DNA of 64,000 bases, taken from Caldimonas sp. GTDB lineage: Bacteria; Pseudomonadota; Gammaproteobacteria; Burkholderiales; Burkholderiaceae_C. The DNA lies in assembly GCF_046291045.1 (NCBI RefSeq), contig NZ_JBKBSL010000013.1, positions 9,701-73,700 of the forward strand, written 5' to 3'. Of this stretch, positions 2,296 through 14,258 are shown in pieces. The notes beneath the pieces were generated by a model that saw nothing but the letters and a program-made list of their open reading frames with translations, was not told where the DNA came from and made no database searches. Position 1 is the stretch's first letter, and each line of letters opens with the position of its first letter. The position numbers and the translations under genes are program-made.

Positions 2296-2937
2296 ATGTG
2301 GCACCGCGCACTGCCGGCGTTCAGCTTGCTCACTCGTCTTCTGACCCTCGGAGCCTTGGTGAGCGTCGTCGGTTGCGCGAGTGCCGGCAAGGCGGTTGAC
2401 GCGGCCAGCGCGATCACGAGCGGCGCGCTGCGCCTGGTCGGCCTGGCGCCGAAGGAGCCTTCACCACCGATCACAGCCCGCCCCATGCGCATCGACCTGC
2501 GGCTGCAGGCGAGCGAATCGCTGAACGTGGATGACCAGGGCCGTTCGCTGTCGCTGGTGGCTCGCGTATACAAGCTCAAGGGTGTCCAGGCGTTTCTGTC
2601 CGCTCCGCACGACGCATTCACCTCGCCAGAACGCGAACGCGAGCTGCTGGGAGAAGAGCTGATCGAAGCCCGTGACGTGCAGATGCTGCCGGGTCAGCAC
2701 CGCGAGTGGCGCGAGATGATCCCGCCCGACGCGACTCACCTCGGTATCGTGGCGCTGTTTCACCGACCATCCACGCATGGCTGGCGCCTGGCCTTCGAAA
2801 CCGCCCCTGCGGCCAAGACAGGCCTGTCGCTCGGCCTGCATGCCTGCAGCGTCAGCGTCGCGATCGGTGTTCCCGTCGGTTCGGGGGCGCCGCCAGCCTC
2901 GACCCCGCTTTCGCCCGCGCGCTGTCCTCGCGGATGA
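2296..2937 (+). CDS. tssJ: T6SS outer-membrane lipoprotein TssJ (VasD/SciN)
   Basis: Lipobox VVGC after ATG 2296; LNVDDQGRSLSLVARVYKLK, HLGIVALFH motifs; precedes tssK-tssL. Confidence 0.92.
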   Translation: MWHRALPAFSLLTRLLTLGALVSVVGCASAGKAVDAASAITSGALRLVGLAPKEPSPPITARPMRIDLRLQASESLNVDDQGRSLSLVARVYKLKGVQAFLSAPHDAFTSPERERELLGEELIEARDVQMLPGQHREWREMIPPDATHLGIVALFHRPSTHGWRLAFETAPAAKTGLSLGLHACSVSVAIGVPVGSGAPPASTPLSPARCPRG

Positions 2938-2962
2938 CTCTTTCAAACCAGAACCCAACGAC

Positions 2963-4315
2963 GTGACACCATCCTCCAAAATCCTCTGGGGCGAGGGCCT
3001 GTTCCTGAGGCCCCAGCACTTCCAACGGCAAGACGCCTATCACGAATGGCGGCTGGCGCAGGTCGCGCGGATGTTGCACCCTTATGCCTGGGGTGTGAAG
3101 CATTTGCGCATCGACGAAGATGCCTTGCAATCCGGCCTACTCCAGCTGCTGGAACTTCGGGCCGTGTTGCCTGATGGGGATCTCTACGATGCACCCCGAG
3201 ACGATCTGCTTCCACCGGCCCTGTCGCTGAACGAGCTCGACCTGCAACAGTCGGAGTTCACGTTTCACCTGTGTGTCGCTCCGATGCGCCGAATGGGCAG
3301 CAACCATGCCCGACTCGAAGAAGACACGGGCGTCGAGCTGCGGTACCGGCAGGACTGCGATGCGCAAGCCGGTGACTGGTTCACGGATGCCGTCCCAGCC
3401 GAGGTGGTGATCCTGCGAAAGGCGGCACGCCTGCGAGGCAGTCACGATCTGCGCGAAGACACCGTGAGCCTGCCGCTGTTGCGCCTGCGACGTAAAGGGA
3501 CGGGCGGCTTCGAGGTGGATCGGCGCTACATTCCTCCGTCGTTGGCGATCGAGTCTGCTCCCCCTTTGCAGTCGCTGCTGCGCCGGCTGCTCGATGCGCT
3601 GCAGGCCAAGGCCGATGCGCTCATCGGTTTGCATCGCGAGCCTTCTAAGAACGTCGTCGAGTTCCGATCGGGAGACGTGGCCTCGTTCTGGTTGCTTCAC
3701 ACGGTCAGTGCGGCCCATGCTTTTTTGTCCCACCTCGCGCGCCACCCCGGGCTGCATCCCGAGCGTCTCTACCAGGGACTGCTCCAGCTCGCTGGCGGCC
3801 TGATGACCTTCTCCAAGTCCTTCACGCTGGCCGATCTGCCCGCCTACGACCATCATGAACCGAGCGACTGCTTCGCCAAGATGGACCACATCGTGCGCGA
3901 GCTGCTCGAAGCCGTGATCTCGACTCGCTACTTCGCCATCGCCTTGCACGAAAGCAAACCGTCCTTCCACGTCGGCCGCCTGGACAGTGAGCAGATCCAG
4001 GCCTCGACCGCATTCTTTGTCGGGCTGTCGGCGGGACTTCCGGGCTCCGAACTCATCGAAACGGCGCCGCTGCGCCTGAAGATCGGGGCACCCGACGATG
4101 TGGAAAAGCTGGTCCTGTCGGCCATGCCCGGCGTCCGGCTCGTGCATGCCCAGCAAGTGCCAGCCGCCGTGCCCATTCGCCCGGGCATGCACTACTTCTC
4201 GTTGGAGGCGCGCGGCCCACTCTATGAACGCATGCTGCAAGCCCAGGCCATCGCCCTCTACACCCCTCAGGGCTGGCCAGATCTGCGTCTCGAATTGATT
4301 GCCGTGAACCCATGA
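2963..4315 (+). CDS. tssK: T6SS baseplate subunit TssK
   Basis: KILWGEGLFLRPQHFQRQD N-terminus; HPERLY motif; start moved to GTG 2963 within ORF 2777..4315. Confidence 0.96.
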   Translation: MTPSSKILWGEGLFLRPQHFQRQDAYHEWRLAQVARMLHPYAWGVKHLRIDEDALQSGLLQLLELRAVLPDGDLYDAPRDDLLPPALSLNELDLQQSEFTFHLCVAPMRRMGSNHARLEEDTGVELRYRQDCDAQAGDWFTDAVPAEVVILRKAARLRGSHDLREDTVSLPLLRLRRKGTGGFEVDRRYIPPSLAIESAPPLQSLLRRLLDALQAKADALIGLHREPSKNVVEFRSGDVASFWLLHTVSAAHAFLSHLARHPGLHPERLYQGLLQLAGGLMTFSKSFTLADLPAYDHHEPSDCFAKMDHIVRELLEAVISTRYFAIALHESKPSFHVGRLDSEQIQASTAFFVGLSAGLPGSELIETAPLRLKIGAPDDVEKLVLSAMPGVRLVHAQQVPAAVPIRPGMHYFSLEARGPLYERMLQAQAIALYTPQGWPDLRLELIAVNP

Positions 4316-5100
4316 CCACTCAGGCCCCTTCCCTCTTCGCCGACACGGAACTGATGCCCTCGCCGGCGCCCTCGCCGTTGCCAGCCTCACCGGCATCCAC
4401 CGGCAAGCTCGTGGATCTGCTCTACGAGGGGTTCTACATGATCTTCCTGCTGAAGAACCGGCATGGGCCGACCGACGCCGCGTCTTTTCGGGAAAGGCTG
4501 CGCGAGTTTTTGGCCGAGTTCGAACGCAATTCGGTCCAGCTCGATGCCAGCGCGGAAGACGTGCACCTCGCAAAGTACGCCTTCTGCGCCTTGGTCGACG
4601 AAACCATCTTGACTTCGGGCCTCAAGTTGCGCGAGGACTGGGAACGACAGCCTTTACAACTGCAGTTCTTCGGTGACCAGCTTGCCGGGGAAAACTTTTT
4701 CATCCATCTCGAACGCTTGCGTCAGCAAGGCGCTGCCCGCCTGGCCGCGCTGGAGGTGTTCCACCTGTGCCTTCTGCTGGGCTTCCAGGGCAAGTACCTG
4801 CTCGAAGGCCAGGAGAAGCTGGGTTACCTCACGGCCAGGCTGAGCGACGAGATCTCCCATCTGAAGGGGCGCAAGGTGGGATTCGCCCCCCATTGGGCGC
4901 CGCCCGACCGCGTGCATCACGTGCTGCACACGGTGGTCCCACCCTGGATGCTGGCTGCCGGCTTCGTCTGCCTGGGATTGCTGGCGTTCACCGGGCTTCG
5001 CGCCATGCTCGACCGGGCCACTCAAGCCGATCTAGCGGCCTATCAGCAACTCATCCAGTTGCCGCCGCAGGCCGCCCACTTGACGATCACGCTGCCGTGA
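4312..5100 (+). CDS. tssL: T6SS membrane complex protein TssL (DotU)
   Basis: AKYAFCALVDE, PLQLQFFGDQLAGENFF, EVFHLCLLLGFQGKY; single C-terminal TM; ATGA overlap with tssK. Confidence 0.96.
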   Translation: MTTQAPSLFADTELMPSPAPSPLPASPASTGKLVDLLYEGFYMIFLLKNRHGPTDAASFRERLREFLAEFERNSVQLDASAEDVHLAKYAFCALVDETILTSGLKLREDWERQPLQLQFFGDQLAGENFFIHLERLRQQGAARLAALEVFHLCLLLGFQGKYLLEGQEKLGYLTARLSDEISHLKGRKVGFAPHWAPPDRVHHVLHTVVPPWMLAAGFVCLGLLAFTGLRAMLDRATQADLAAYQQLIQLPPQAAHLTITLP

Positions 5101-5104
5101 CGAC

Positions 5105-5950
5105 TCAGGGGCTGCCCAAGGCCGTGGCCTGGCGCGGACAGGCCGCCTCATCGTCGTGCCGAGCTGCACAGACACGCGCACGGCACAGCTGCCCTTCCAG
5201 CCAGCCCAGCGCCAGACAACGCCGTACCAGCTCGGCCGTGGGGACACCTGCTTGCACCAGCACCACGTCACGATCCGGATCCGGCGACGCGAGACGCCGT
5301 CCAGTTGCCGCTGGGCGCGGCACCGACGGCTCCGGCGCGGCTCGCGACATCAGCACCTCGATCACCTCCACGTCAGGGTCGGCGGTGCGCGCCGCAGCCG
5401 CAGGACGCCGGACGGATTCTCCCACCCCGCGCCCGGCCCGCAGCGTTTCGCGCCGGCCCCCCGGGATCGACTGTTGGGCAGCCGACGAAGGCTCGTCAAG
5501 CCCAGGTGTCGCCCCCGGTGCCTGCGCCTCGACACGAAGCTGCTGTGCAACAGGCTCTTCGGCAAGCTCGATCCGCGCCGCAGAGGGTGCGGGCGCAACG
5601 GTGGCTGGCACAGGGGTCTGCGCCGACGAGGGCGTCGGACGGGCCGTGACAAGCTGCGGCGAGTTGCCATGGACCGACGCGACCTGCTCATGGGCAACCG
5701 CACTGCCCGCCCGCAGCGGCCAGGCCCACCACCACGCCAGCGCGCCCAGCAGCAGCGCTGTGGCAACCGCCCCGACGCGCAAGTGCCTTGCCACCGGCGA
5801 GCGCCCGCGGGCGTGGCCTTGGCCCACCACCGCCAGGATGCCCGCTTCGCCTTCGGCCGCAGCGCCCGAGGTCTCGAACGAAGCTTCGGGGGACGCCAAG
5901 AGGCTGGGCATGGCCTCATGCTCCGGTGTGTGCGATGGGCGCTTGTACAT
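5105..5950 (-). CDS. tagY: T6SS-associated single-pass membrane protein with Pro/Ala linker and C-terminal 4-Cys domain (TagY-like)
   Basis: One TM (VGAVATALLLGALAWWWAW), low-complexity linker, DPDVEVIEVLM motif, C-terminal C-x10-C-x4-C-x9-C; divergent from tagX as recalled for Burkholderia T6SS-1. Confidence 0.6.
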   Translation of the reverse strand: MYKRPSHTPEHEAMPSLLASPEASFETSGAAAEGEAGILAVVGQGHARGRSPVARHLRVGAVATALLLGALAWWWAWPLRAGSAVAHEQVASVHGNSPQLVTARPTPSSAQTPVPATVAPAPSAARIELAEEPVAQQLRVEAQAPGATPGLDEPSSAAQQSIPGGRRETLRAGRGVGESVRRPAAAARTADPDVEVIEVLMSRAAPEPSVPRPAATGRRLASPDPDRDVVLVQAGVPTAELVRRCLALGWLEGQLCRARVCAARHDDEAACPRQATALGSP

Positions 5951-6003
5951 GATTCCTCCCTGTGGCCATCCATCGGTCGTCGAGCCGGGATCGCGCGCGG
6001 CCG

Positions 6004-6053
6004 ATTCTAGAAAGACCGACGTGATCTGTGGCGTCTTGAAATGCCTCGTTACA
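6004..6053 (-). promoter_or_regulatory. Candidate tagY promoter (-10 TAGAAT) with a pair of OmpR-like half sites
   Basis: Minus-strand TAGAAT at 6004-6009; GAAATG (6038) and GTTACA (6048) spaced 10 bp apart. Confidence 0.4.
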
Positions 6054-6066
6054 TCATGAGGAAGCG

Positions 6067-6906
6067 ATGGGCTGGATCATTGTTTGCGTGATCGCCGCCA
6101 GCGTGCTCTTGAGTTGGTGGGCCCTGCCAGAACTGCGCGGTGGCCCCGTCTCATGGGAACGTCGTCGTCGCCATGGGCCAGCGGGTCAGCGTCGGGGCCT
6201 GACGCTAAAGGGGCGGTTCGGCAGTACATCTGGCGCGCCGCGGCGTGCTCCATCGGCTGCGATCGCCCTGGCGCGCAAGCATTGGCCGTACGCGCTGGGG
6301 GTGGTTGCCCTGCTGAGCGCCCCCCCGATGCTGGCGTGGTGGCTGCATGACGGCCGCCGCGTGGCGGACTTCGGCGTGTCCCACGGAACCGCAAGGAACG
6401 ATCAGGTCGCCTGGCTGCTACAAGGCGAGAAACTGGCTCCCCCACCCCCTTTGCCCCCCGAGGTGTTCGCCACCGCAGAGGTCGAGGCGGTCCGCCCCCG
6501 ACTCACCGATGCCAGCCGTGACTGGTCCCTTCTCGACGAAGATTTCCGTCAGCGTCTGCTGCTCGTCTATCGACTGATGCGTGAGCGCCATGGCTATGAG
6601 ATGGTGCTGATCGAGGGATACCGGAACCCGCAACGACAGGCCGAGTTGCTGGCCCTGGGCCCTCACGTCACCCAGGCCGGCCCCGGCGCAAGCTACCACC
6701 AGCATGGTCTGGCGGCCGATAGCGCCTTCCTGCGCGACGGCGTGCTGGTGATCTCCGAGCAGGATCCCTGGGCCCTGGAAGGCTACCGTCTTTACGGAGA
6801 AATCGCCGAATCGGTGGGCCTGACCTGGGGAGGGCGCTGGAAGATGCGCGACTACGGCCACGTCGAGCTGCGCTCGATCCACCTTGGCCGACGAAACCAA
6901 CAGTAA
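6067..6906 (+). CDS. tagX: Membrane-anchored M15-family (L-Ala-D-Glu/VanY-like) peptidoglycan endopeptidase TagX
   Basis: N-terminal TMs; IEGYRNPQRQAEL, SYHQHGLAAD (H-x6-D), WGGRW, DYGHVE zinc-peptidase motifs; T6SS context. Confidence 0.85.
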   Translation: MGWIIVCVIAASVLLSWWALPELRGGPVSWERRRRHGPAGQRRGLTLKGRFGSTSGAPRRAPSAAIALARKHWPYALGVVALLSAPPMLAWWLHDGRRVADFGVSHGTARNDQVAWLLQGEKLAPPPPLPPEVFATAEVEAVRPRLTDASRDWSLLDEDFRQRLLLVYRLMRERHGYEMVLIEGYRNPQRQAELLALGPHVTQAGPGASYHQHGLAADSAFLRDGVLVISEQDPWALEGYRLYGEIAESVGLTWGGRWKMRDYGHVELRSIHLGRRNQQ

Positions 6907-6974
6907 CAGGTTGCTGGGCCTTGTATCGCTAGACTTCGCGCCACAACGAATTCATCCAAGTGCAGGGAGTGCAC

Positions 6975-7529
6975 ATGTCTCGTCCGTTCATCGTCCTGGG
7001 CGACAGGACCAGCCACGGTGGCACCGTCGTCGAAGCCTCGGCATCCACCGACACCCATGGTCGGCGCATCGCGCGCGTCGGAGACCGGGTCACCTGCCCC
7101 CGCAAGGGCCACGGCCGCCTCACCACGATTGCCACCGGGGATCCCACGATGCTGATCGACGGCAAGCCGGTGGCTCGCCATGGCGACAAGTGCGCCTGTG
7201 GGGCGACGCTGATCGCGAGCCAAAGCGTCAGCACTGTCGGCCCAGGCGGGGGCGGAGACACATCCGCCCCATGGGCAGGCAGCAGTGCCGCTTCCGTGTC
7301 TCCTCCGGAGCCTGGGGCCAAGGCAGAGCCGGACAAGCAAGATGGACAGGACGAGGTGATTGAGCAGTACTTCTTCCTGGCTGATGAATTTGGACATCCC
7401 TGCGAGGGCTACCGATACGACCTGTTCGCGAACGGCGCGTTGCATGCGAAGGCCAAGGATTTCAGCGGTGGATGTACTACCAGTGTGCAGGGCGTTTGCG
7501 AGCTCAAACTGGTCATTTGGCTGAACTGA
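6975..7529 (+). CDS. PAAR spike-tip protein with C-terminal transthyretin-like extension
   Basis: LGDRTSHGG...ARVGDRVTCPRKGHG...VARHGDKCACGATLI PAAR core with His/Cys zinc ligands; then a low-complexity linker and EQYFFLADEFGHPCEGYRYDL, resembling TTR-like adaptor folds. Confidence 0.9.
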   Translation: MSRPFIVLGDRTSHGGTVVEASASTDTHGRRIARVGDRVTCPRKGHGRLTTIATGDPTMLIDGKPVARHGDKCACGATLIASQSVSTVGPGGGGDTSAPWAGSSAASVSPPEPGAKAEPDKQDGQDEVIEQYFFLADEFGHPCEGYRYDLFANGALHAKAKDFSGGCTTSVQGVCELKLVIWLN

Positions 7530-7530
7530 G

Positions 7531-8148
7531 ATGTCAAAGGTCGACGACGAGACTCGCCAACTGGCGGCAATGGCATACGGCGAGGCATCGCCGGACAACG
7601 TGGAGGCCGAGCTGCAGGCTCTGGCCAGCATCTTGGTGCGACAGCGCGACGCGCGCGGATACAAGGACATCGCAAGCTTCGCACGAGGCGAGCCAACCTT
7701 TTCATTCGTCGTCAACGACGGGAACAAGCGCTACGCCAAGCTGATGAAGGCCAGCGATCAGGAAATCGAGAAGGACACCGGCATGCGACGTGCGGTCGCC
7801 GCCGCCAAGAATGCACTGGCCGGGGGACCGGACATGTCGAACGGCGGTTGGTTCTGGGACGGCGCCGACATCAAGACCAATTACAAGAACCACTTCAAAG
7901 TGAAGCACGGCATCCGCTTTTCGGATCCATCGCACAACATCTATGGCATCGAGGAGTCGACGAAGGTCGTGATCCTTTATAGGCGGATCAAGGTTCGAGA
8001 CAAGAACACGGGCACCGTGAGCGTCAAGCAGGAGGAGATCGGCCGCTATGACCACGTCTACCAATCCACAGCGGCTCACGGCGGGACGATTTTCTGGAGG
8101 TTGAACCCCGAGTACCTCCGATTGACACGCGCCAAGGAGTACAAGTGA
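7531..8148 (+). CDS. Putative T6SS peptidoglycan-degrading effector, SleB/CwlJ (Hydrolase_2)-like
   Basis: LAAMAYGEAS (candidate catalytic Glu18), ALASILVRQR, DMSNGGWFWDG, HGGTIFW resemble cell-wall hydrolase family motifs; no signal peptide; starts 1 bp after the PAAR stop. Confidence 0.7.
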   Translation: MSKVDDETRQLAAMAYGEASPDNVEAELQALASILVRQRDARGYKDIASFARGEPTFSFVVNDGNKRYAKLMKASDQEIEKDTGMRRAVAAAKNALAGGPDMSNGGWFWDGADIKTNYKNHFKVKHGIRFSDPSHNIYGIEESTKVVILYRRIKVRDKNTGTVSVKQEEIGRYDHVYQSTAAHGGTIFWRLNPEYLRLTRAKEYK

Positions 8149-8711
8149 TGCTGCTCTCCCGCGCTTTGCTCGCACCCGCCCTGATCCTCGGAGCATGTGC
8201 CATCGCAAAAGAGCCGCCGCGAGAAGTGCTCAGCTCGTGCCTCGCCGCTCGCGTCACGTCGAGTGACATTGCCGCCGAGGAACTTGCGACCTCGCAGGTC
8301 ACTGCAGACGACGACTTTTCGCCAGGCGTGAAGGCGACGTACTTGATTTCCGCTGGAGAAACTGAAGTCGGATATGGGCAGTCGGAGAACTCGCATGTGT
8401 TGATCTATGGTGAACACGTGCTCCGGCTCTCGTCGGCCTCGCTGGCAGCGGGAACCACGGTTTCTCCGAGGCCATTCGATCCTTTCCGCGCCGACTGGAT
8501 CCAGCTTCGGCGAAGCGGTCGGACCTACCTGTGCGTCAGCTTCAACTTTGATGGAGTGGGGCGAAGCGGCAAGCATCAGGACGTGCGTGCGGCTTACCTG
8601 CTCACACCCGGGAGATCCACGCGGCACCGGCCCATGCTGCACTTCACCGTGGGCCCCGTTGCGCAGTCAAGCACGGGTCAGGGGCCGCATCGTCCACACC
8701 AAGGCAAATGA
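8145..8711 (+). CDS. Lipoprotein, putative cognate immunity protein
   Basis: Signal peptide with lipobox LGAC (Cys18); GTGA overlap with the effector stop; no recognisable enzyme motif. Confidence 0.65.
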   Translation: MMLLSRALLAPALILGACAIAKEPPREVLSSCLAARVTSSDIAAEELATSQVTADDDFSPGVKATYLISAGETEVGYGQSENSHVLIYGEHVLRLSSASLAAGTTVSPRPFDPFRADWIQLRRSGRTYLCVSFNFDGVGRSGKHQDVRAAYLLTPGRSTRHRPMLHFTVGPVAQSSTGQGPHRPHQGK

Positions 8712-9031
8712 AGACCGGGGCCTGGATCTCTGTCACAAGCGCGGGGCTGCGCAGCTGTGCAGTCGCGGGCCAGCCGCCCTCGGTGCCTGTGAAGCACCCT
8801 GTCGAGCGCTGGGAGGCCTGCTGCTCCCTGCGAGGAGAGTTTTCCGGGGACCCCGAATCCGACAAAGATCGAATCGAAATGACGAACCAAGCCTGCGCAG
8901 GCACCGACCGGGAACTCGCCACACTGCTCGCGAGATATCGCCATCACCAACGTGTACTTGAAGCTCTTGGCAAGTATGAGCGCAGCAGCATCGAGTCGAG
9001 CACGGCGACGCAATATGACGCACGACAGTGA
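8708..9031 (+). CDS. Small Cys-containing hypothetical protein, possibly a second/orphan immunity lipoprotein
   Basis: ATGA overlap with upstream gene; weak signal/lipobox-like GLRSC; ERWEACCSLRGE...CAGTDRELATLLARY helical pattern. Confidence 0.5.
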   Translation: MKTGAWISVTSAGLRSCAVAGQPPSVPVKHPVERWEACCSLRGEFSGDPESDKDRIEMTNQACAGTDRELATLLARYRHHQRVLEALGKYERSSIESSTATQYDARQ

Positions 9032-9035
9032 TCTT

Positions 9036-9146
9036 GACGGGCGCCCCCCCATGCTGACCGACGGCAAGCCGGTGGCCGGCCATGGCGATCTCACGGCCTG
9101 CGGCGCCACCTTGGTCGCCAGCCAGTCCCTCAGCACCGACGCCTGA
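9036..9146 (+). pseudogene. Truncated PAAR remnant (3' half only)
   Basis: MLTDGKPVAGHGDLTACGATLVASQSLSTDA* (9051-9146) matches PAAR residues encoded at 7149-7241 at 23/31 aa; the N-terminal half is absent. Confidence 0.85.
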
Positions 9147-9168
9147 CCGGCCCCGCGGGAGTTGCTCA

Positions 9169-10467
9169 ATGCGCAAGAACCTCTGGCCTGGTCTGGCCCT
9201 GCTCGGCCTCATGGTGGCCGCGCTGTGGGTCTTCGTGGAACGGCCGTCCGTGCCGGATGTGATGGACGATCGCTGGTGGTCCCTCATCGCGCTGGCCTTG
9301 CTGGCCGGCGTGACACTGCGGGCCTTCCGTTCGGGCGGTCAGGATTCAGACGCCGGCAGCGCGTCGGCTTCGGCCATCGCACCGAAACAAGTCGACGCCG
9401 CCACCGCGACCTCTGCCCGGCCCGCGCAGTTGTTGGTGCGCGGCGCCGCCGTCGCCACACGGTGCGGGCACGATCCCGGCACGGTGCTGCAAGCGCTCGG
9501 CTCCCAACCCCCGATGCCCGCGCCGGACCCGGACTGTCTCGACGATCAAGGACTGCCTCGCCTGAGCGCCCGCTGCTCTGCCCTGGATACGTCCCGCGTG
9601 ACGGCCGCTTTGATGGTCCTGACCTCCGGCCCCGCCGGGCGTCCTGGGTTGGTGCGGGCTTTGGCCCTGCAAGCCGACGCGCTTGACGGTCTGCAAGCCA
9701 CGCTGCAAGCCATGCCTCATCGCGGCGGTCTCGACGTTCGATGGACGGTGCCAGACCACTGGAGCGACGCAGAACTCGAACTGGCACAAGCCTGGTTGAA
9801 GAACGACCTGAGGGCGCGGATGCCCCCCGATGCCGGCCCCTTGACACTGCGGACCGAGAAAGCGGCCGGTCCGGCCGCCTGGCTCAACTGGCGGTCTCGC
9901 CGCGGCTTGGAGACCGAGACGCATCCGTCCGAGGCTCGGCCGATGCTGGTGATGGCCTGTGATTCGCTCGTCGATCCCCAGCACGAGCTCGCAGCCGCCG
10001 TCCCCGGCGAAGCCGCTGCGGCGCTGCTGATCGAGATGCCTCCCTCCGAAGAGGCCTCGTCGGCGCAGGACGGTGCCCTCGCACACCTGTCCTGGCCTAT
10101 CGCCCCCGCCTCGCCTCCCCCCGCTGAACGCTCCTTGCAGGATCTCGCCGCGCAGGCCCTGGACGCTGGCTCAGAGACCGTGGTGGTTGGCCGGGTCATC
10201 AGCGACATCGGGCTGGCCGGGCCTGAGGCCCGCCAAGTGCTCGATGCCATCGTCGAGCTGCTGCCGCAACTCGACGTCGGCGAGCGCCTGTGCCGCATCG
10301 GGCTGGCCTGCGGGAACCTGGGATGTGCAGGCCCGCTGGTGGCGTTGGCGCTGGCCAGCCACGCCTCCCACCAGGACGAGGCCGCAGCTCTCCTCCTGCT
10401 GACAGGGCGACAGCCGGTGGCCGCCTTGTTGACGCCCAAGCGGCTCGCCGCCCTCTCACCCGCCTGA
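9169..10467 (+). CDS. T6SS-associated membrane protein with degenerate thiolase/ketoacyl-synthase-like C-terminus
   Basis: Two N-terminal hydrophobic segments; C-terminal VISDIG...IGLACGNLGCAGPLVALALA resembles the end of the thiolase fold; immediately upstream of tssM. Confidence 0.6.
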   Translation: MRKNLWPGLALLGLMVAALWVFVERPSVPDVMDDRWWSLIALALLAGVTLRAFRSGGQDSDAGSASASAIAPKQVDAATATSARPAQLLVRGAAVATRCGHDPGTVLQALGSQPPMPAPDPDCLDDQGLPRLSARCSALDTSRVTAALMVLTSGPAGRPGLVRALALQADALDGLQATLQAMPHRGGLDVRWTVPDHWSDAELELAQAWLKNDLRARMPPDAGPLTLRTEKAAGPAAWLNWRSRRGLETETHPSEARPMLVMACDSLVDPQHELAAAVPGEAAAALLIEMPPSEEASSAQDGALAHLSWPIAPASPPPAERSLQDLAAQALDAGSETVVVGRVISDIGLAGPEARQVLDAIVELLPQLDVGERLCRIGLACGNLGCAGPLVALALASHASHQDEAAALLLLTGRQPVAALLTPKRLAALSPA

Positions 10468-10499
10468 GCGGCCTCGCATCGACTCTGATGTGCTGATCC

Positions 10500-13400
10500 A
10501 TGCATAGTCTGTTGAACTTCTTCTCCCACCCCATCGCCCAGCGCGTGACGGGCTGGCTGGCGCTGGTGGGTTTTGTGAGCGTCGGCGCCTGGACTTTCGA
10601 TCTGCCCCTGCGTTGGGCCCTGGGCGTGCTCATCGTCATCATGCTGGTGGCGCTCGTCCGCTGGGCCGTGCAGCGCCGCAAGGCGCGGTTGGCCGCCCAG
10701 CAATTCGAGCAGGCCCTGGACGCCCAGCATGCCGAGGCTTCGAGGTTCGATGCGCCGCGCCACCGGCGTGAGGAGGTGGCCGTCCTGCGCGAGCGCATGC
10801 GGCAGGCGATCCGCACGCTCCAACGCTCCAGGCTGGGACAGACGTCGGGGCGGGCCGCCCTCTACGAACTGCCCTGGTACATGATCATCGGCAACCCAGC
10901 GGCCGGCAAGAGCTCGGCGATCGTCAAGTCCGGGCTGCGATTCCCTTTCTCTGACGATGCCGGCAACATCATCCAGGGGATCGGGGGAACCCGCAACTGC
11001 GACTGGTTCTTCACCTCCGAAGGCATTCTGATCGACACCGCCGGGCGTTACAGCGTGCAAGACGAGGACCGGGCCGAATGGTTGGGCTTTCTCGGTCTGT
11101 TGAAAAAGCACCGTCCCAAGGCACCGATCAACGGCATCGTGATCGCCGTCAGCGTGGCCGAGCTGGCGACCCAACGCCCGGAGGCCAACATCCGTCTGGC
11201 CAAGCAGTTGCGCCAGCGCATGCAGGAGCTCACCGACACGCTCGAAGTCATCGCCCCGGTCTACGTCATGTTCACCAAGGCGGACCTCATCAGCGGGTTC
11301 GTCGAGTTCTTCGAGGACCGCGACCGTAGTGAGCGCGAGCGCGTGTGGGGCGCCACCCTGCCCTACGACGACCAGGGACGTGCCGATGCTGTAGGGCTGT
11401 TCGAACGCCATTTCGACGAACTCTACGAGGGGCTCAAAGCCGCCTCGGTGGCACGCATGTCCATGCAGCGCGGCGAAAAGCTGCCTCCGGGCGTCCTGAG
11501 CTTCCCCCTGGAATTCGCGAGCCTCAAGCCGGCGTTGTCCGCCTTCATCGCCACCCTGTTCGAAGACAACCCCTACCAGTATCGACCGAGCTTCCGAGGC
11601 TTCTACTTCACCAGCGCGGTCCAGGAAGGCGAATCCACCAGCCGGTCCAGCGAGCGGGTCGCACGCCGTTTCGGGCTGAGCCTGCAGCCCGGCACCACGG
11701 CCAGCGTCTACTCCCATGCGGGCTTCTTCCTGAAGGATCTGTTCACCCGCGTCATCTTTGCCGACCGCCACTTGGTGCGCCAGCACCAAACGAAGCCTCG
11801 GCGGCGCTGGCGTCAGGCCACGGTGATCGTGGGTCTGGTATCGCTGGGCCTGAGCCTGGGCTTGTGGACCTGGTCGTATGCGAACAACCGTCAGTGGGTC
11901 GCCAACGTGCGCGCCGACCTCGAGCACATCACCCGACTGCAGACGTCGTCGCCCGATCTGTCGTCACGCCTGGAGGCTCTCATGATCTTGCAGGATCGGC
12001 TGAGCCAAGTCCAGGCGATCCATCGTGAGCGCCCCTGGGCCCTATCCTTTGGCCTGCACCAGGGGCGCCAACTCGAGGACACGCTGCGCCGAGAGTACTT
12101 TCACGGGGTGCGTGAAGTCATGCTCAAGCCGGTGGCGCAAAGCATCGAAGCCTATCTGGCAGCCGTGAAGGAGAAGGAGAGAGAACTGCACGATGGCACC
12201 GAACCGGTTGCCGCATCGGCAACGCTACCCTCGGCAGCCGCGCAGGGCTCCCCCTACAGCACCGCATCGCCCACGAGCGTCACCGATGCCTACAACGCCC
12301 TCAAGACCTACCTGATGCTGGCCGACCGGCGTCGCGCCGAGCCCGGGCACCTGAGCGACCAGATCACCCGCTTCTGGCGTGGCTGGCTCGAAGTCAACCG
12401 CGGCGCGATGCCACGGGAGCGCATGCTGGTGGTGGCCGAATCGCTGATCGCCTACACCGCCTCCCAGGTCAACGACCCCCAGTTCCCTCAGGTCGCGAAC
12501 AATCTCGCCCTCGTGGACGAGAGCCGCCGCGTGCTGCGCACCGTAGTGCGGGGCATGCCCGCACGAGAGCGCGTCTACGCCGAAATCAAGGCTCGCGCAG
12601 CCACGCGTTTTGCGCCGATGACAGTGGCGCGCGCGGTCGGAGAGTCCGACCGCGAGTTGTTATCGGGCAGCCACGCCGTTTCTGGCGCCTTCACCCGTCA
12701 GGCCTGGCGCGAGTATGTGCAAGGCGCCATCCGTGATGCTGCCCATAAAGCCCTGCAGGCCGATGACTGGGTGCTCAAAACCACTGTACAGGATGACCTC
12801 ACCCTCGATGGCAGCCCCGAGCAGATCCAAAAGGCGCTGACCGATGCCTACAAGTCCGAATACATCGCCCAGTGGCACCGCTTCCTGCACGGCGTGAGTG
12901 TCCAGCCCTTCGGCAGCTTCGAGCACGCCGTCAGTCGGATGAACCGTCTGGGTGACCCGGCCAGCTCACCGCTGGGGCGCTTGATGGCCGTCGTGCACGA
13001 GGAAACGTCCTGGGACCGCCCGCCGGCCGCCCTCGATGCGACCGGCACCAGCCGTAGCTTGGGCAGATGGTTCCGCGAGGTGGTACTGCGCCAGGCACCG
13101 ACCCAGGGGAACCCGCAAGTGCCCACCGACGGTGCTGCAGCCAGCGCCCAACCGGCGCTCATGGGGCAGGTGAGTCAGGAGTTCGCAGGTGTGGCCCGCC
13201 TGCTGAGCACCCGCGAGGACGGCGGCAGCCTGATGGGGGCCTACCTGGACGGCCTGTCTCGGCTGCGCACCCGATTCAACCGCATTCACACTCAAGGCGA
13301 AGCCGGGCCGGGCAGCGTCCAGCTTCTGCAGCACACACTCGAAGGACAGTCCGAGCTCGCCGAGCTGCTCAAGCTCGTCGATGAACAGATGCTCAACGGC

Positions 13401-14258
13401 CTGAGCGATGGCGCGCGCGCCAGCCTGCGTCCCTTGCTCGTGCGACCCTTGATGCAAGCCTACGAGGCGCTCATCCCAGTGGCCGAGGACGAAATCAACC
13501 GCATCTGGGTTGCCCAGGTGCATGGTCCCTACGAAACCACGCTGGCCGACCGCTATCCCTTCAAACCCGACGCTCGCGTCGAGGCCTCGGTGGCAGACAT
13601 CGCCAAGATCTTTGGCCCCGAAGGGGCCGTGGCCCGGTTCGCGGACAAGACCCTCGGTCCGTTGGTGATCCGGCGCGGCGACAGCCTGGCACCGCGCACC
13701 TGGGCCGACCTGTCCATCCGGCTCCATCCCGAGTTCACGGCTCGCTTTGCCACCTGGGTGGCACCACTGGGTGGCCATGCCGCGGCTTCTTCGGCCGGGG
13801 GGGCGGAACAAACTCTGTTCCAGATCCTACCCCAGCCCGCCCCGGGATTGACCGAGTACAGCCTGGAGATCGACGGCCAGGTGATGCGCTACCGCAATGC
13901 CGCAGCCGCCTGGTCGCACTTCGTCTGGCCCGGTCCTCAGCCCACACTCGGCGTGCGTCTGCACGGGGTGAGTTTCGATGGTCGCAACATCGACTTCGTG
14001 AACGAACCCGGTCGCTTCGGTCTGGAGCGCATGATCCATAGCGCCCAACGCCGTCGCATCGATGCCCAGACTCACGAGCTGCGATGGTCCGCCGGCGGAC
14101 ATGCCGTAGCCATGCACCTGCGCATCATTGCCATGCCGGGGTCTTCCGGCGAATCGTCCAGTGGCCATGCAGGTCTGGGTGGCGCACCGCTGCCTCGCGT
14201 GGTGGCCGGCCCTGCCTCCCGCCCCGCGCCCGCAGCGTCTGCAGGAGGCCCACGATGA
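10500..14258 (+). CDS. tssM: T6SS membrane complex protein TssM (IcmF)
   Basis: LYELPWYMIIGNPAAGKSS (Walker A), GTRNCDWFF, LIDTAGRY, PINGIVIAVS; three TMs; 1252 aa. Confidence 0.97.
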   Translation: MHSLLNFFSHPIAQRVTGWLALVGFVSVGAWTFDLPLRWALGVLIVIMLVALVRWAVQRRKARLAAQQFEQALDAQHAEASRFDAPRHRREEVAVLRERMRQAIRTLQRSRLGQTSGRAALYELPWYMIIGNPAAGKSSAIVKSGLRFPFSDDAGNIIQGIGGTRNCDWFFTSEGILIDTAGRYSVQDEDRAEWLGFLGLLKKHRPKAPINGIVIAVSVAELATQRPEANIRLAKQLRQRMQELTDTLEVIAPVYVMFTKADLISGFVEFFEDRDRSERERVWGATLPYDDQGRADAVGLFERHFDELYEGLKAASVARMSMQRGEKLPPGVLSFPLEFASLKPALSAFIATLFEDNPYQYRPSFRGFYFTSAVQEGESTSRSSERVARRFGLSLQPGTTASVYSHAGFFLKDLFTRVIFADRHLVRQHQTKPRRRWRQATVIVGLVSLGLSLGLWTWSYANNRQWVANVRADLEHITRLQTSSPDLSSRLEALMILQDRLSQVQAIHRERPWALSFGLHQGRQLEDTLRREYFHGVREVMLKPVAQSIEAYLAAVKEKERELHDGTEPVAASATLPSAAAQGSPYSTASPTSVTDAYNALKTYLMLADRRRAEPGHLSDQITRFWRGWLEVNRGAMPRERMLVVAESLIAYTASQVNDPQFPQVANNLALVDESRRVLRTVVRGMPARERVYAEIKARAATRFAPMTVARAVGESDRELLSGSHAVSGAFTRQAWREYVQGAIRDAAHKALQADDWVLKTTVQDDLTLDGSPEQIQKALTDAYKSEYIAQWHRFLHGVSVQPFGSFEHAVSRMNRLGDPASSPLGRLMAVVHEETSWDRPPAALDATGTSRSLGRWFREVVLRQAPTQGNPQVPTDGAAASAQPALMGQVSQEFAGVARLLSTREDGGSLMGAYLDGLSRLRTRFNRIHTQGEAGPGSVQLLQHTLEGQSELAELLKLVDEQMLNGLSDGARASLRPLLVRPLMQAYEALIPVAEDEINRIWVAQVHGPYETTLADRYPFKPDARVEASVADIAKIFGPEGAVARFADKTLGPLVIRRGDSLAPRTWADLSIRLHPEFTARFATWVAPLGGHAAASSAGGAEQTLFQILPQPAPGLTEYSLEIDGQVMRYRNAAAAWSHFVWPGPQPTLGVRLHGVSFDGRNIDFVNEPGRFGLERMIHSAQRRRIDAQTHELRWSAGGHAVAMHLRIIAMPGSSGESSSGHAGLGGAPLPRVVAGPASRPAPAASAGGPR

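Follow-up and report, generated by a model that had tools for sequence, protein, structure and literature searches.

The stretch analysed here (the window) comprises 64,000 nucleotides (nt) of Caldimonas sp. contig NZ_JBKBSL010000013.1, positions 9,701 to 73,700, from a member of the Sphaerotilaceae in the order Burkholderiales, and contains a type VI secretion system (T6SS) core cluster. Between tagX and tssM the cluster carries an intact gene for a PAAR protein of 184 amino acids (aa), genes for a putative cargo effector and a putative immunity lipoprotein, a small open reading frame (ORF), and then the 5'-truncated end of a second PAAR gene, here called the remnant, which lies in front of a gene for a 432-aa protein. 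The locus very probably has a two-step history: a foreign effector module was captured within a PAAR gene in the ancestor of a related clade (contigs L001 and L017 and their groups), and the finished block was then imported very recently by homologous recombination into the lineage of the window.

The remnant translates as MLTDGKPVAGHGDLTACGATLVASQSLSTDA followed by a stop codon (9051–9146). It is identical to the intact PAAR gene (7149–7241) at 23 of 31 aa, the same count as in a preliminary description of the locus, and at 69 of 93 nt (74%). Of the codons compared, 12 are identical, 11 differ synonymously and 8 non-synonymously; the match is far beyond chance (blastn E = 7e-11 and 6e-12). 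Pfam places the fragment at positions 44–70 of the 70-position PAAR_motif profile (E = 9.6e-7). The left edge of the similarity is abrupt, with weak homology extending about 12–15 nt beyond 9051 to ~9037–9039, equivalent to PAAR residue 55, in tblastn and a multi-lineage alignment. This agrees with the start at 9036 given previously, and the N-terminal half described as missing corresponds to PAAR residues 1–54, so that the complete domain of a working PAAR protein is absent. No second cassette copy and no other PAAR-like segment were found elsewhere within the window.

In nucleotide identity the remnant is closest to the short-PAAR end of contig L011 (95%), followed by L020 (86%), other Caldimonas short PAARs (82–86%) and its own intact neighbor (74%). 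It therefore groups with the short PAARs and not with the intact copy, and the earlier judgment that it is not a fresh duplication holds. The remnant has the Caldimonas-specific signatures DLTAC and SLSTDA-stop, neither of which is present in the intact copy. Thr60, Gly68 and Val80 are specific to the remnant. The changes comprise R68G and I80V in the window, H69R, D71E and S86N in L017, and V66E, D71E and S82R in L022; R68, H69, D71 and I80 lie in columns that are invariant in the homologue alignment. Because PAAR-invariant residues are replaced, and independently across lineages, the remnant appears to be a decaying, non-functional pseudogene scar.

The intact gene encodes a full-length domain (PF05488 PAAR_motif, positions 1–70 of 70, E = 1.3e-28), and the AlphaFold2 (AF2) model of its product shows the PAAR cone fold, with Foldseek matches to 4jiw_D (c1882; E = 9e-5, template-modelling (TM) score 0.77) and 4jiv_D (VCA0105). 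Up to 7186 its codons are 97–99% identical to the short PAAR genes of empty alleles, which have no cassette (97.6% in direct comparison), and protein residues 1–71 are identical to L011; from 7187 on this identity collapses. The tract from the tagX–PAAR spacer through PAAR codons 1–70 is uniformly resident-type. Beyond it lie a tip (DKCAC...STVG), a Gly/Ser/Pro-rich linker (GGGG) and a ~60-aa beta-rich C-terminal extension domain; in the AF2 model the PAAR core is followed by a disordered segment (86–125) and a confident beta domain (126–184). Since the 3' segment of the intact copy is only 70–78% identical to every short PAAR compared, it is foreign, and the gene is a chimera of a resident 5' part and a foreign 3' part. 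The PAAR-plus-extension architecture occurs in hundreds of homologues, and to judge from gene order the extension presumably serves to attach the effector to the spike tip. Support for a transthyretin-like fold of the extension was faint (3qva, probability 0.12), and no such fold is claimed.

The foreign insert spans ~7187 to 9033 and comprises the PAAR tip and extension, the effector gene, the lipoprotein immunity gene and the small ORF. Its guanine-plus-cytosine (GC) content is 61.1%, as compared to 66–68% in the flanks; the two GC samples reported previously (30/60 at 7861–7920 and 41/60 at 9181–9240) are exact, and the trend they indicated holds over the whole interval. ORF listing and Pfam scans, without a dedicated scan for terminal inverted repeats, revealed no integrase or transposase in the interval. 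Insertion of a mobile element was rejected, since no such gene was seen and a ~50 base pair (bp) overlap between the two PAAR copies is longer than the target duplication that a transposon would leave.

Related contigs were reached through homologues of the 432-aa gene. Contigs L011–L016 carry tagX, an 89-aa PAAR gene, 23 nt, a homologue of the 432-aa gene and tssM, without a cassette, and their short PAAR ends in MLIDGKPVARHGDLTACGATLIASQSLSTDA and a stop codon, followed by the same spacer as that behind the remnant. Empty alleles, with an 89-aa PAAR ending in SLSTDA-stop 23 nt before the next gene, were found in L011–L016, in L020, in contigs of sequencing runs X3 and X4 and in a minor unitig of run X1; the preliminary description had predicted such alleles, with a PAAR of about 90 aa ending near STDA. 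A TagX-anchored scan of species-representative genomes yielded 58 loci, and at 32 of these a PAAR gene lies between tagX and tssM. The PAAR is short (86–89 aa) at 31 of these 32 loci, and at 30 of the 31 a distance of 1.35–1.73 kb, about one gene, separates it from tssM; among the genera are Caldimonas, Dechloromonas, Azonexus, Aquabacterium, Pseudoduganella and Pseudomonas. Only L023, a Caldimonas metagenome-assembled genome (MAG), has cassette and remnant among the 32. Because empty sites occur in relatives and in 31 of 32 species-level loci, the order tagX, short PAAR, 432-aa gene, tssM is probably ancestral, as had been proposed, and the cassette is far from universal among relatives. Alternative cassettes at the same junction, which had also been predicted, did not turn up between tagX and tssM in the 58 species-level genomes, where one cassette type only was seen.

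Segment-by-segment identities were taken from a MAFFT-based table. Flank identity is ~97% between the L001 group and L017/L018, ~92% between L011 and the L001 and L017 groups, 87–92% between the window and the L001, L017 and L011 groups, and ~80–84% between L019 and the rest. The cassettes of L001 and L017 are 98.5% identical, and since this is congruent with their flanks the cassette was probably inherited vertically in the L001/L017 clade. The window and the L001 group match without a single difference over 7074–9289 (0/2216), while the flanks are only ~87% identical (just outside the tract, ~90% on the left and ~75% on the right). The spacer and the start of the 432-aa gene (9147–9289) are 100% identical to L001 and 90.9% identical to L011, with dense mismatches to L020 up to 9273.

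Contig L020, whose 432-aa protein is 97% identical to that of the window, is the empty allele of the window's own lineage. Outside ~7130–9273 the two are 99.8% identical, with 3 mismatches over 5785–7129 (none over 6712–7129) and 7 over 9274–12311; mismatches are dense at 7130–7234 and 9048–9273. The left crossover interval is 7074–7129, within PAAR codons 34–52, and the right one is 9274–9289, in codons 36–41 of the 432-aa gene (~110 nt in). A tract of zero divergence, flanks of normal divergence and a known prior allele of the recipient are what allelic replacement leaves behind, and the window is an L020-type chromosome with an L001-type tract that was very probably imported by double homologous crossover. 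The remnant is not this lineage's own because L020 and the minor empty allele of X1 differ from it at 13 of 96 positions while the tract is 100% L001-type; remnant, spacer and the opening 120 nt of the 432-aa gene are passengers rather than a displaced PAAR end of the window's lineage. The earlier proposal that an incoming unit displaced the old PAAR end is borne out by the chimeric PAAR and the stranded end, but its placement in this genome is not, since the 100% L001-type tract puts the displacement in the L001/L017 ancestor. Likewise, the left crossover fell within PAAR in two separate events, in keeping with the suggestion that PAAR is a swap point, but with only one cassette type a general hotspot is not shown.

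Both alleles coexist in one hot-spring metagenome. Run X1 contains the window junction sequence, and its contigs, aligned to the window at 80% likeness, break exactly at both crossover intervals. The cassette path is a 2204-bp unitig (7100–9303, depth 264.7), and the empty path is a 303-bp unitig (depth 85.1) that links 7156 with 9059 and shows the differences typical of L020. The shared flanks have depths of 323 and 331, to which 264.7 and 85.1 about add up, and the left-flank unitig is unbroken over 6500–7129, with no branch at 7073 where an L001-type flank would diverge. Because 37 positions distinguish the PAAR end and spacer of the X1 empty allele from the remnant region, this allele is not derived from the cassette allele by deletion. 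Cassette and empty site are a within-population presence/absence polymorphism of a T6SS effector/immunity cassette on locally identical flanks. Runs X3 and X4 contain only the empty allele of the window's lineage.

Table 1. Positions within the window of the features discussed, with the basis for each assignment.
Feature	Position	Strand	Basis
tssK	2777-4315	+	T6SS core cluster
tssL	4312-5100	+	T6SS core cluster
tagX-like M15 peptidoglycan peptidase gene, conserved left flank	6067-6906	+	Pfam Peptidase_M15_4, E=4.7e-11
184-aa PAAR gene, intact copy	6975-7529	+	Pfam PAAR_motif
Resident-type 5' part of PAAR gene, codons 1-71	6975-7186	+	Identity with short PAARs
Foreign 3' part of PAAR gene (tip, linker, C-terminal extension)	7187-7529	+	Identity collapse versus empty allele
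205-aa putative cargo effector	7531-8148	+	Family context, AF2/Foldseek
187-aa putative immunity lipoprotein	8148-8711	+	Lipobox, gene order
107-aa hybrid small ORF, last cassette gene	8708-9031	+	Contig comparison
PAAR 3' remnant (residues ~55-89 and stop), apparent pseudogene fragment	9037-9146	+	blastn, tblastn, Pfam, alignment
Native PAAR-to-next-gene spacer and first 120 nt of 432-aa gene	9147-9289	+	100% identity with L001
432-aa gene between PAAR and tssM, right flank	9169-10467	+	Conserved position
tssM (IcmF), core T6SS membrane-complex gene	10500-14258	+	Pfam IcmF-related_N, IcmF-related, IcmF_helical, IcmF_C

In the history we propose, the ancestor of the L001/L017 clade would have had tagX, a plain 89-aa PAAR gene, the 432-aa gene and tssM. 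In the older step a foreign PAAR tip and extension, with effector, immunity and small lipoprotein gene or genes, would have recombined into this PAAR gene, with a homologous left join at codon ~70 (7176–7186) and an illegitimate right join at ~9032–9038, directly past the stop codon of the last cassette gene (9029–9031). This would have duplicated ~50 bp of PAAR, stranded the old end (residues ~55–89) next to its native spacer, and turned a plain spike tip into a chimeric PAAR that has an adaptor domain and, behind it, the genes for cargo toxin and immunity. In the very recent step the finished block of an L001-type donor would have entered a previously empty-site lineage by double homologous recombination, carrying the remnant as a passenger in the right-hand homologous region. 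The ~50 bp of PAAR present on both sides of the insert (the equivalent of 7137–7186) would fit one crossover, in the older step, with a donor that was circular or concatemeric; homology-facilitated illegitimate recombination fits less easily.

A number of observations weigh against this history or limit it. The ~50-bp overlap (7186 as compared to a remnant start at ~9037) is not expected from a simple double-crossover replacement, and the donor of the older step was not found, the closest outside effector being 71% identical in aa among the matches listed. The comparison sequences are all metagenome contigs or MAGs, without closed genomes, and contigs L001–L010 came from an exact-protein look-up, so that the set is biased to identical cassettes. 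The function given below for the effector depends on a weak fold match (E about 0.1).

Other origins of the arrangement were weighed against the same data. Two direct copies of a 93-nt segment lying 1.9 kb apart might reflect a recent tandem duplication of the PAAR 3' end in this genome, but copies only 74% identical, a remnant that matches another lineage's short PAAR at 95%, its DLTAC and SLSTDA-stop signatures and the existence of empty alleles leave this explanation practically no credence. Chimeric PAAR, cassette and remnant are also the product expected if the incoming unit had pushed this lineage's own PAAR 3' end downstream in situ; this is very improbable given the 13/96 differences between the remnant and the lineage's own PAAR end in L020 and the X1 minor allele, and the 100% L001-type sequence from the remnant through the first 120 nt of the next gene. 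We also hold it very improbable that the window is an assembly chimera of empty-site and L001-type strains. Its source does look like a hot-spring metagenome, and identity changes over within conserved stretches, in which an assembler may cross from one strain to another, but the right switch shares only 16 nt (9274–9289), below any usual k-mer, and in X1 the left flank continues unbroken over 6500–7129 without an L001-type branch at 7073 and the depths of the two paths (264.7 + 85.1) add up to those of the flanks (323–331).

The ~50-bp overlap between the copies would be accounted for if the module had inserted beside a complete resident PAAR gene, the downstream PAAR later losing its 5' part and the 5' part of the upstream one being homogenised by gene conversion. 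This route needs at least three events as compared to one, no locus with two full PAARs at the site was found among ~22 close contigs and 58 species loci, and the tagX–PAAR spacer and PAAR codons 1–70 are uniformly resident-type, which makes it improbable, although less so than the explanations above. The fragment could instead have been kept for its function, either as a small gene, since an ORF is open from GTG 8952, ATG 9015 or ATG 9051 to 9146 and would encode a 31–64-aa peptide, or as an element for expression of the downstream gene, in front of which the native spacer is retained. Two thirds of the PAAR fold are missing, however, and independent lineages change otherwise invariant residues (R68G and I80V here, H69R, D71E and S86N in L017, V66E and S82R in L022); we judge a function of this kind decidedly improbable, somewhat more so than the route through two full PAARs. 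Capture in the L001/L017 ancestor followed by import remains the preferred history. Within it, the stranded PAAR end and native spacer might act as a built-in right homology arm and, together with the PAAR 5' half, form a recombination-ready cassette for related empty clusters even at ~13% divergence, one that could be excised through the ~40-bp PAAR repeat; this idea is tentative and on balance unlikely. Were it to hold generally, a search of genomes for PAAR fragments truncated at the 5' end could reveal where effectors were captured at spike-tip genes.

The 205-aa protein has 362 homologues among the matches listed, all unnamed (Paraburkholderia, Ralstonia, Klebsiella, Chromobacterium, Dyella and others). 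The family shows 60–70% identity across genera, is annotated as hypothetical only, and is nearly always encoded directly downstream of a PAAR-plus-extension gene. The protein has no Pfam, NCBIfam or PDB sequence match. A glutamate (Glu18) within a YGE motif is invariant in the homologue alignment, and the AF2 model (pLDDT 88.5) has SleB catalytic domains as its top three Foldseek matches (probability 0.85–0.97, with weak E values of 0.12–0.32 and TM 0.38 for query and 0.59 for target). A SleB-like fold, and with it lytic transglycosylase activity on peptidoglycan, is tentatively suggested for the protein, which would act on the cell wall of target cells, and the family is a candidate new named T6SS effector family, possibly SleB-like.

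The N-terminus of the 187-aa protein, MLLSRALLAPALILGAC, contains a lipobox, and most related loci have a homologue immediately behind the effector gene; this position and the predicted lipoprotein suggest a periplasmic immunity protein. The order PAAR-plus-extension, 205-aa homologue, 187-aa lipoprotein homologue is strongly conserved in 80 metagenome loci, where a homologue of the small last gene sometimes comes next, as it does after the immunity gene in L088 and L093. No PAAR fragment was found downstream of the same effector module at E ≤ 0.01 in these 80 loci. Pfam, NCBIfam and PDB sequence searches gave no usable match for the PAAR extension, the 187-aa protein, the small ORF or the 432-aa gene, and an LprI/DUF1311 label for the small ORF was a guess without Pfam support.

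The spacer between immunity gene and remnant occurs in two forms, a short one of 458 bp (the window, L001–L003 and L006) and a long one of ~890–897 bp (L004, L005, L007, L017, L018 and L023). The long form contains two tandem paralogous small genes, and the short form an in-frame 107-aa hybrid produced by a 439-bp deletion between the 16-nt repeats TGCGAGG(A/C)GAGTTTTC (window 8829–8865; L004:3183–3219 and 3622–3658). As the more divergent lineages have the long form, the two-gene arrangement is probably ancestral.

Other metagenome loci with the same effector family have an intact effector–immunity pair followed by a 5'-truncated effector copy (L106:5195–5958, L107:9578–10341, L097:2224–2727, L130:1052–1555 and L157); in L106 and L107 the truncated copy (residues 132–205) is itself followed by a second immunity gene. 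From their layout these copies look like displacement scars inside the effector gene.

The PAAR-plus-extension gene is split in L017 (7368–7922), L018 (7368–7922) and L023 (5093–5644), where a 99-aa PAAR ends in the Gly-rich linker and the extension is called as a separate 77-aa ORF (L018) or is detectable by tblastn (L023). The PAAR core of these split genes is intact and its connection to the adaptor domain is broken. Run X1 also contains contigs at genome-like depth (325–366) with other PAAR genes, ~85% similar over short stretches (window 6975–7024 and 7136–7192), and the organism probably carries further PAAR paralogues outside the window.

On the left side of the locus the M15 peptidase domain of TagX is encoded within the T6SS cluster. 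The best match to TagX of the window (80% identity) is in a Caldimonas MAG, and tagX orthologues adjoin PAAR/tssM in Caldimonas, Dechloromonas and Pseudomonas and occur also in Acinetobacter, there next to tssL. On the right, tssM is followed by tagF and an ompA-family gene. The 432-aa gene has only 9 homologues in a word-index search and weak tblastn similarity at the same position across many genera, and is fast-evolving. Residues 375–420 of its product have a weak, sub-threshold match (E = 0.023) to Tla3_C, which is the C-terminal domain of Tla3, a T6SS lipase adaptor. Divergence from the L001 group is uneven along the cluster: the 432-aa gene (9290–10460) shows ~76% identity, the region 5105–6450, with a minus-strand ORF (5105–5950) and the 5' half of tagX, 61–76%, and tssK, tssM and tagF 87–92% in the same comparisons.

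With breakpoints resolved to the base pair and the before-state at hand, the locus documents how a T6SS core cluster gains a toxin through recombination inside PAAR, and how the finished module then jumps between lineages ~13% divergent by ordinary homologous recombination. The coexisting alleles offer a natural setting in which to measure what gaining a T6SS effector and immunity pair does to fitness, and the locus points to a large unannotated effector family, possibly of SleB-like cell-wall enzymes.

Displacement of C-terminal ends and formation of orphans at Rhs and contact-dependent growth inhibition (CDI) loci were reportedly described by Jackson and colleagues in 2009. The same processes are described for Rhs and CDI (cdiA) loci by Koskiniemi et al. 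2014 (PMC3967940). As at those loci, the conserved 5' part of the gene is the homologous anchor, a new 3' end with its immunity gene arrives by horizontal transfer, and the old 3' end is displaced downstream, truncated at its 5' side but with some of the conserved region still attached, which leaves a direct repeat that could later mediate deletion. Two hallmarks are present here: the truncated downstream copy is orthologous to the pre-insertion allele (95% to L011, native spacer kept), and the main gene is chimeric (97.6% to 7186, collapse from 7187). Unlike Rhs and CDI, the anchor is a minimal 89-aa PAAR gene in a T6SS core cluster instead of a large toxin gene, the toxin has an ORF of its own with only the linker and a ~60-aa domain fused to the anchor, and the displaced end carries no orphan toxin or immunity gene, the old allele having ended 23 nt before the next gene. 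The site also has one cassette type, with a short PAAR and no other insert in 31/32 species loci.

The closest model for the order of events comes from V. cholerae T6SS modules, where rare insertions with one homologous and one illegitimate end shift old 3' sequence back, and frequent homologous recombination then moves the finished array between strains via conserved flanks (Kirchberger et al. 2017, PMC5361080). Both processes are seen at the Caldimonas locus. In contrast to V. cholerae, where effector, adaptor or vgrG genes are the anchors and immunity genes are retained, here the anchor is PAAR and a PAAR fragment is retained; furthermore, flank divergence gives a time reference for each of the two steps, and one population contains both alleles. 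PAAR proteins that load cargo effectors by means of an extension domain at the C-terminus were reportedly described by Shneider and colleagues in 2013 and by Wood and colleagues in 2019. The chimeric PAAR resembles them in its N-terminal PAAR cone, flexible linker and small C-terminal domain, with effector and immunity genes directly downstream, and differs in that its extension has no Pfam assignment and effector binding is suggested by gene order. The T6SS effector T6EC3 is SleB-like, has a Glu that is a candidate for catalysis, and is paired with an immunity protein directed to the periplasm (Mol Syst Biol 2024, PMC11148199). The 205-aa protein is likewise an unannotated putative T6SS toxin whose predicted fold may be that of the SleB lytic transglycosylase domain, with a candidate Glu, although the match is weak (E about 0.1, TM 0.38/0.59) and the comparison is one of fold; the SleB-like part of T6EC3 is a C-terminal domain, and here it would be a free-standing 205-aa cargo protein. 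The locus is a variant of a known displacement process rather than a system of a new kind, and it carries the logic of displacement at Rhs, CDI and Vibrio modules over to the smallest T6SS structural gene.

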